DNA of 5,772 nt, from NCBI RefSeq assembly GCF_050320075.1, contig NZ_CP190025.1. One strand, written 5' to 3'. The translations under genes and the position numbers were made by a program. Below, in pieces: positions 4,201-4,756 of the stretch. A model generated the notes under the pieces. That model saw nothing but the letters and a program-made list of their open reading frames with translations, ran no database searches and was not told the origin of the DNA. The number at the start of each line of letters is the position of its first letter. The first letter of the stretch is position 1. Source of the DNA: Escherichia coli (GTDB lineage Bacteria; Pseudomonadota; Gammaproteobacteria; Enterobacterales; Enterobacteriaceae).

Positions 4201-4756
4201 GTAAACAAAAAAACCACCGCTACCAACGGTGGTTCGTTTGCCGGAATCAAGAGCTACCAACTCTTTTTCCCGAAGGTAACTGGCTTGGTGGAGCGCAGAT
4301 ACCAAATACTGTCCTTCTAGTGTAGCCTCAGTTAGGCCACCACTTCAAGAACTCTTAATATCTCAATCCACCTTGTCCAGTTACCAATGGCTGCTGCCAG
4401 TGGCGTTAAGGCGTGTCTTACCGGGTTGGACTCAAGACGATAGTTACCGGATAAGGCGCAGCGGTCGGGCTGAACGGGGGGTTCGTGCACACAGCCCAGC
4501 TTGGAGCGAACGACCTACACCGAACTGAGATACCAACAGCGTGAGCTATGAGAAAGCGCCACGCTTCCCGAAGGGAGAAAGGCGGAGAGGTATCCGGTAA
4601 GCGGCAGGGTCGGAACAGGAGAGCGCACGAGGGAGCTTCCAGGGGGAAACGCCTGGTATCTTTATAGTCCTGTCGGGTTTCGCCACCTCTGACTTGAGCG
4701 TCGATTTTTGTGATGCTCGTCAGGGGGGCGGAGCCTATGGAAAAACGCCACCGGCG
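4201..4756 (+). ncRNA. RNAII pre-primer RNA of the ColE1-type origin (3' end at the RNA/DNA switch is approximate)
   Basis: Region 4143..4800 is highly similar to the remembered pBR322/ColE1 origin (e.g. GTAAACAAAAAAACCACCGCTACC ... GGAGCCTATGGAAAAACGCCA). Length of about 555 nt from start to origin assumed from ColE1. Confidence 0.85.
4203..4312 (-). ncRNA. RNAI antisense copy-number control RNA
   Basis: Minus strand beginning at 4312 reads ACAGTATTTGGTATCTGCGC..., the recalled RNAI 5' end. Three stem-loops complementary to the RNAII 5' region. RNAI promoter hexamers TTGAAG and TACACT lie upstream on the minus strand (4319..4349). Confidence 0.85.

Follow-up and report, generated by a model that had tools for sequence, protein, structure and literature searches.

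Plasmids of the ColE1 type replicate without a plasmid-encoded initiator and depend on RNase H and Pol I of the host. The steps by which RNAI, RNAII, and Rop control this replication are established ColE1 biology, in which the Rop product stabilises the kissing complex between RNAI and RNAII. In the Masukata–Tomizawa model, furthermore, the alpha segment of RNAII (i.e., the 5' half and the loop of hairpin III) later pairs with a downstream segment called beta, and the binding of RNAI prevents this pairing. ColE1 and pMB1 are incompatible with each other. As to which loops matter, we followed Chaillou et al. (2022; PMC9458437): the loop–loop kissing of RNAI and RNAII starts their binding and sets incompatibility, a single point mutation in RNAI can be enough to alter it, and loop differences were shown to be insufficient for predicting compatibility (PMC9458437). 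In the same study, p15A was the control plasmid compatible with a colE1 origin (PMC9458437).

The window, namely the whole stretch of 5,772 nucleotides analysed here, is an entire circular plasmid of the ColE1 type, which is mobilizable and corresponds to plasmid p0 of E. coli J-8 (NZ_CP047007.1; rotated, with one mismatch to the window). Its mobilization genes (MobC/MbeA/MbeB/MbeD) and rop constitute a ColE1-like backbone, and its origin is identical to that of ColE1 (NC_001371) at 93.5% of 618 aligned columns and to that of pBR322 at 93.9% of 609 columns. The ColE1 reference was the database record; the sequences used for the origins of pBR322 and p15A each had 100% matches in PLSDB, which include shuttle vectors. 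Rop/Rom, which many but not all members of the ColE1 type have, is encoded by a listed open reading frame at 5159–5350 on the minus strand (annotated as WP_000165985.1 on the near-identical RefSeq record), and ColE1 has the protein of the same accession. RefSeq also annotates a 52-aa “replication initiation protein” (WP_072672540.1) at 4332–4490 of the window (minus strand), inside the part of the origin that encodes RNAII, and the annotation of ColE1 includes an ORF like it. This ORF is probably a spurious call, because replication of the ColE1 type needs no plasmid-encoded initiator.

The sequence-only reading had placed the RNAI region at 4203–4312, and this is exactly the RNAI gene on the minus strand. 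Indeed, Rfam RF00106 matches at 4205–4310 with 66.6 bits (gathering score, 47), and the 110-nt transcript is predicted to fold into three hairpins with a minimum free energy of −43.8 kcal/mol (z = −4.9). From its 5' end at 4312 (ACAGUAUUUGG), RNAI runs through the three hairpins to a U-run terminator, with a terminator-like site at 4235–4211; like the RNAI of about 108 nt that is typical of ColE1-type replicons, it lies antisense to the 5' end of the preprimer, as the alignment to ColE1 also shows. The RNAI 5' hairpin, numbered III by Chaillou et al. (PMC9458437) and corresponding to structure III of RNAII, spans 4275–4303 in the alignments and folds and has its loop at 4286–4291 (UGGUGG in RNAII, CCACCA in RNAI). 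It is followed by the middle hairpin at 4241–4272, whose loop at 4254–4260 reads UUGGUAG in RNAI, and by the 3' hairpin (structure I of RNAII) at 4212–4234 with the loop at 4220–4226. The RNAI promoter was read from the sequence at 4319–4348 (minus strand), with the −35 element TTGAAG at 4343–4348, the −10 element TACACT at 4319–4324, and a spacer of 18 nt; it was assigned by homology to the promoters of ColE1 and pMB1, and its −10 region agrees with ColE1 in the alignment. The promoter of the RNAII preprimer at 4165–4193 (plus strand; −35 TTGAGA at 4165–4170, −10 TAATCT at 4188–4193, 17-nt spacer) was likewise read from the sequence and is identical to that of pBR322, and this region aligns to ColE1 as well. 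Neither promoter was on the list returned by a simple consensus scan of the window for promoters. The RNAII preprimer region itself, of about 550 nt and homologous to the ColE1 origin, was placed by this homology at 4201–4755 on the plus strand, its 3' end being approximate. Judged from the homology and the predicted folds, what we have here is a naturally occurring allele of the RNAI/RNAII antisense system with which ColE1-type plasmids control their copy number.

Compared with ColE1, RNAI in the window is identical at 104 of the 111 aligned columns; namely, the 9-nt 5' tail, almost all of the stem positions, and the loop of the 3' hairpin are the same, and the middle loop UUGGUAG is common to the window, ColE1, pMB1, and p15A. 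The difference lies in the loop of the 5' hairpin, which is CCACCA (6 nt) in the window and CUGCUGA (7 nt) in both ColE1 and pMB1, i.e., four bases are different and one is missing in the alignment. Besides this loop, the middle stem has an insertion compensated on both sides (an extra G and an extra U in the RNAI sense; in the plus strand, an A at 4245/4246 and a C within 4269–4271), and the lower stem of the 3' hairpin has one A-to-G change, where the G still pairs with U. The three loops are hence not all complementary to RNAII of ColE1 or pMB1; by inspection of the loop sequences, CCACCA of the window RNAI is pairable at only two of the six positions with the loop UCAGCAG of ColE1 RNAII. 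As for p15A, its 5' loop (CCUCCA) has 6 nt like that in the window and differs at the central base only. The stems of p15A are different from those in the window, about 84 of the 114 RNAI columns are identical, and the two 3' hairpins have nothing in common (CCACCGUUGGUAGCGGUGG in the window and CCGCCCUGCAAGGCGG in p15A), so the loops of the window are not all those of p15A.

The observation of the sequence-only reading holds, with one correction. The substitutions and small indels relative to pBR322 are confirmed by the alignment, and the first string it had quoted, GGCTTGGTGGAGCGC, is present at 4282–4296, where the 5' loop truly differs from ColE1 and pMB1. Its second example, CCAACGG in place of CCAGCGG in pMB1, is also present (4223–4229) and does differ from pMB1, but it is the ColE1 sequence, and the base concerned sits at the closure of the loop and not within it: the closing base 4226 (A in the plus strand) gives U in RNAI of the window and ColE1 and C in that of pMB1. 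Because ColE1 has CCAACGG and is nonetheless incompatible with pMB1, this example is silent on a new specificity. In the alignment with ColE1, pMB1, and p15A that was proposed there as a check, the 5' loop is identical to neither ColE1 nor pMB1, and the other two loops are those of ColE1.

The change in the loop is matched by a second change in RNAII about 80 nt downstream, in the beta segment TCAATCCACCTTGTCCAGTTACC at 4363–4385 (plus strand), which was assigned from the minimum-free-energy folds and from covariation across origins. When the first 190–202 nt of RNAII were folded, pairing of alpha with beta appeared in all four sequences examined (the window, ColE1, pBR322, and p15A). In the fold of the 190-nt RNAII of the window, 4275–4292 pairs with 4367–4385, which is the refolding characteristic of ColE1-type replicons; GGUGGA at 4287–4292 is predicted to pair with UCCACC at 4367–4372, and GGUAACUGG in the 5' half of the stem with CCAGUUACC of beta. 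The UCCACC of the window stands in contrast to CGCUCUGCU in beta of ColE1. In every one of the 12 origins compared, beta matches the loop: CAGCAG goes with CGCTCTGCT (ColE1, pBR322, the second origin of pEC3-6, and one copy in pU90-2), GGTGG with TCCACC (the window, pECO29, pU90-3, and one plasmid each from O26 and E. albertii), GGAGG with CTCCTC (p15A), and TCACGG with GCTCCGTGA (a plasmid of Klebsiella variicola). A search of 100,044 species-representative genomes for the conserved stem, whatever the loop on it, gave 69 loci; the covariation was counted only over the bona fide origins among them, which represent 14 loop alleles. The complement between alpha and beta averaged 7.1 nt in the cognate combinations and 2.7 nt in the non-cognate ones, and none of 20,000 permutations reached the observed cognate sum. 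Because the covariation of loop and beta holds across the 14 alleles, we read the window allele as a coordinated functional variant and not as damage. The matching change in beta would leave self-regulation and the folding of the primer intact.

A 125-nt stretch covering RNAI recurs with 100% identity in 22 PLSDB records (2.4–9.5 kb) from E. coli, Klebsiella, and Salmonella with differing cargo, hosts, and countries, and also in 22 of the 5426 complete E. coli genomes; RNAI of ColE1, for its part, is found at 99% identity or more in 196 records. The plasmid pECO29 (NC_001537), which carries the Eco29kI restriction-modification system, is one nucleotide off in this stretch (G/A in the 3' hairpin stem) and has the same beta. 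In pU90-3, an EcoRI plasmid, the CCACCA loop and the matching beta are found on an RNAI that is otherwise that of ColE1, without the insertion in the middle stem. Beyond these, Cedecea neteri has all three loops of the window, and in Pantoea stewartii and Erwinia endophytica the 5' loop of the window recurs alongside other loops. By MOB-suite, two relatives with the window loop, pECO29 and pEA15_4, fall in rep_cluster_2350, as ColE1 does. Plasmid C of the mouse strain E. coli M9 (NZ_CP010199.1) has the cargo and mobilization backbone of the window (about 93% identical overall), and its RNAI at 750–854 (43 bits in Rfam) differs in all three loops. Because M9 carries the same cargo with a completely different RNAI, modules of origin and RNAI appear to be exchanged among otherwise related plasmids, as these sequences suggest.

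By the established mechanism of ColE1, RNAII is transcribed from about 4201 toward the origin and requires the correct fold for priming DNA synthesis. RNAI, transcribed from 4312 to 4203 on the opposite strand, kisses RNAII via the three complementary loops with the help of Rop; after kissing, it zips up from its 5' tail, and the alpha–beta pairing is blocked. The window allele keeps two of the ColE1 loops, the 5' tail, and almost all of the stem positions, and it has a different loop on the hairpin that lies closest to the 5' end of RNAI. RNAI of ColE1 or pMB1 could then not kiss RNAII of the window at the variant hairpin, nor vice versa, and without this reciprocal kissing the cross-inhibition would be weakened, so that the plasmid would be at least partly compatible with ColE1 and pMB1. 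We thus infer, with a probability of roughly 0.58, that the one-loop allele with its matching beta weakens the cross-regulation with ColE1/pMB1. The sequence-only reading had gone from loop changes in general to a likely distinct specificity; the principle and one relevant loop stand, but the other two loops are those of ColE1. With two of the three loops, the 5' tail, and nearly all of the stem being those of ColE1, altered incompatibility is plausible but unproven.

The strongest competitor, which we consider a serious though clearly less probable account, is that the allele still belongs functionally to the incompatibility group of ColE1/pMB1 and that the loop and beta mainly tune the copy number or the kinetics of primer folding. 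The two loops and the 5' tail that are unchanged from ColE1, along with the near-identical stems (104 of 111 columns identical in RNAI), would be enough for cross-inhibition in this case; the 5' loop in the window is shorter by one base, and replicon typing into rep_cluster_2350 lumps the loop-bearing relatives with ColE1. The predicted energies of the full duplex are of the same tendency: the heterologous duplexes between the window and ColE1 amount to −189 to −193 kcal/mol as opposed to −215 to −220 kcal/mol for the cognate ones, i.e., about 86–90% of the cognate energy is retained. For the pair of p15A and ColE1, the prediction is −107 to −118 kcal/mol. Such energies do not discriminate kinetic specificity and were taken as a caution only; since the heterologous energy is still high, any specificity would have to be kinetic.

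Against full membership in the ColE1 group stands E. coli U90, where pU90-2 (ColE1::IS66, with the ColE1 loop) is co-resident with pU90-3, whose RNAI is that of ColE1 except for the CCACCA loop, although this is a single genome and presence in one assembly is not the same as stable coexistence. The record of pU90-2 (NZ_CP068037.1) is, moreover, a dimer of 18.7 kb, with 18 mismatches and 14 gaps between its halves. Of its two origin copies (8993–9100 and 18351–18459), one has the ColE1 loop and beta, and in the other, CCACCA and the beta belonging to it stand within ColE1-type flanks; this chimeric copy could come from recombination with the co-resident pU90-3 or could be an artefact of assembly or polishing. 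The effect reported for RNAI point mutations on incompatibility (PMC9458437) also speaks against the ColE1-group account, and the existence of many natural alleles of the 5' loop, each matched by its beta, fits better with diversifying selection on specificity than with tuning of the copy number alone.

The middle loop, which p15A shares with ColE1 while serving as its compatible control, does not force incompatibility, as this comparison shows. Similarly, one shared loop appears to be tolerated in Erwinia endophytica, because this species holds two origins that have the CCACCA loop in common and differ in the other two loops; the window and ColE1, by contrast, have two loops in common. In E. 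coli SCEC020022, a plasmid with the identical RNAI is found beside p5, a second ColE1-type replicon with all three loops different; p5 was the only ColE1-type co-resident in our survey of accession neighbours of the allele-carrying strains, where the other small neighbours were mostly not of the ColE1 type (MobQ/Rep plasmids, cryptic plasmids of 1.5–1.8 kb, and one ColE2-type plasmid). When the 22 strains with the window allele were compared with the 60 of 196 ColE1-type records that were listed, no strain overlapped, but the expected overlap is less than one and the comparison hence has no power. We also considered pEC3-6 (NZ_CP060984.1), an 8.8-kb cointegrate of a window-type plasmid and a second small ColE1-type plasmid, whose two RNAIs (1743–1853 and 6237–6346) differ from each other, the second having the ColE1 5' loop with different middle and 3' loops. 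This was rejected as evidence for compatibility, given that two origins on a single molecule need not be compatible.

It is improbable that the plasmid belongs to the specificity group of p15A. The 6-nt 5' loop is just one base off that of p15A and the middle loop is identical, but that one base is the central one, the 3' hairpin is unrelated, and the predicted duplex between the window and p15A reaches only −117 to −128 kcal/mol; membership in this group was rejected on these three grounds. Least probable by far is the account that the differences mean nothing functionally and reflect neutral drift or errors of sequencing or assembly, for which nothing specific speaks beyond the fact that long-read assemblies of small plasmids can have indel errors (cf. 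the halves of pU90-2), and which is effectively refuted by the recurrence of the region in 22 independent PLSDB records and 22 complete E. coli genomes, by the compensation of the stem insertion on both sides, and by the match of the separately encoded beta to the loop.

If weakened cross-regulation through the one-loop switch is real and confers compatibility, plasmids with this allele could stack with ColE1/pMB1 plasmids and vectors in one cell, bringing with them restriction-modification systems and cargo of the window type, and typing into rep_cluster_2350 would miss a genuine boundary of compatibility. More tentatively, the loop of hairpin III may form, together with the beta some 80 nt downstream of it, a two-site specificity cassette, which is exchangeable by recombination and whose swap alone founds an incompatibility subgroup; we regard this as possible but doubtful. 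If it were true, a naturally circulating subgroup would exist inside a single ColE1 typing cluster with the other two loops untouched, and the chimeric origin copy of pU90-2 would be an exchange caught in progress. The covariation of loop and beta also bears on engineered origins: those with randomised RNAI loops probably need a matching beta for full function; Chaillou et al. altered the loops only and reported the functional space to be sparsely populated (PMC9458437).

Apart from the origin, the low-GC cargo of the window plasmid includes three linked genes, which probably are more interesting than the RNAI finding and merit a study of their own. The gene annotated as tRNA-Lys(CUU) at 4007–4095 is like tRNA-Ser in its acceptor stem, D arm, G73, and long variable arm, and it lies with the genes for a 296-aa aaRS-fold protein and for a membrane protein related to serine/threonine transporters. 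Homologues of the aaRS-fold protein at 50–66% identity keep a tRNA-like gene about 40–200 nt away, in which the ends are invariant and the “anticodon arm” is replaced by unrelated hairpins of 11–13 bp. These homologues (L085–L095 and L100) usually adjoin a transporter, the family of which varies (EamA, MFS, or the 372–378-aa type as in the window), and in many of the loci (e.g., L086, L088, L091, L094, and L100) an MBL-fold gene (Lactamase_B, weakly Apyc1-like) is adjacent. Small mobilizable plasmids often carry this module; in the window plasmid, the MBL gene is absent. When metagenomes were scanned with the invariant ends of the tRNA-like gene, 27 loci were obtained: 20 were ordinary tRNA-Ser and two were odd tRNA-like genes (L107 and L109), none of these having the aaRS-fold protein nearby, and the remaining five had aberrant arms like that in the window and all adjoined both the aaRS-fold protein and a transporter. 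The two odd genes (L107, 8689–8788; L109, 1963–2064; both on the minus strand) are 100–102 nt long and tRNA-Ser-like with the same acceptor and D arm, with anticodon loops UAU and CCC and very long variable arms. From this pattern, the tRNA-like gene looks like a dedicated substrate for the aaRS-fold enzyme rather than a decoding tRNA; a literature search on this pair of tRNA-like gene and aaRS-fold protein found nothing.

In conclusion, a ColE1-type control system and variation of this kind are textbook matter, the sequence has long been public, and the plasmid is an ordinary, already-sequenced one; the textbook picture of ColE1 control is unchanged by what we found in the window. Relative to ColE1, beta is rewritten in the window and 13 nt are missing upstream of it, and relative to pMB1/pBR322, the shared features and the difference in loop and beta are the same as for ColE1. 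The closest relatives in loop and beta, pECO29 and the EcoRI plasmids of the pU90-3 type, carry restriction-modification systems as their cargo, unlike the plasmid described here.
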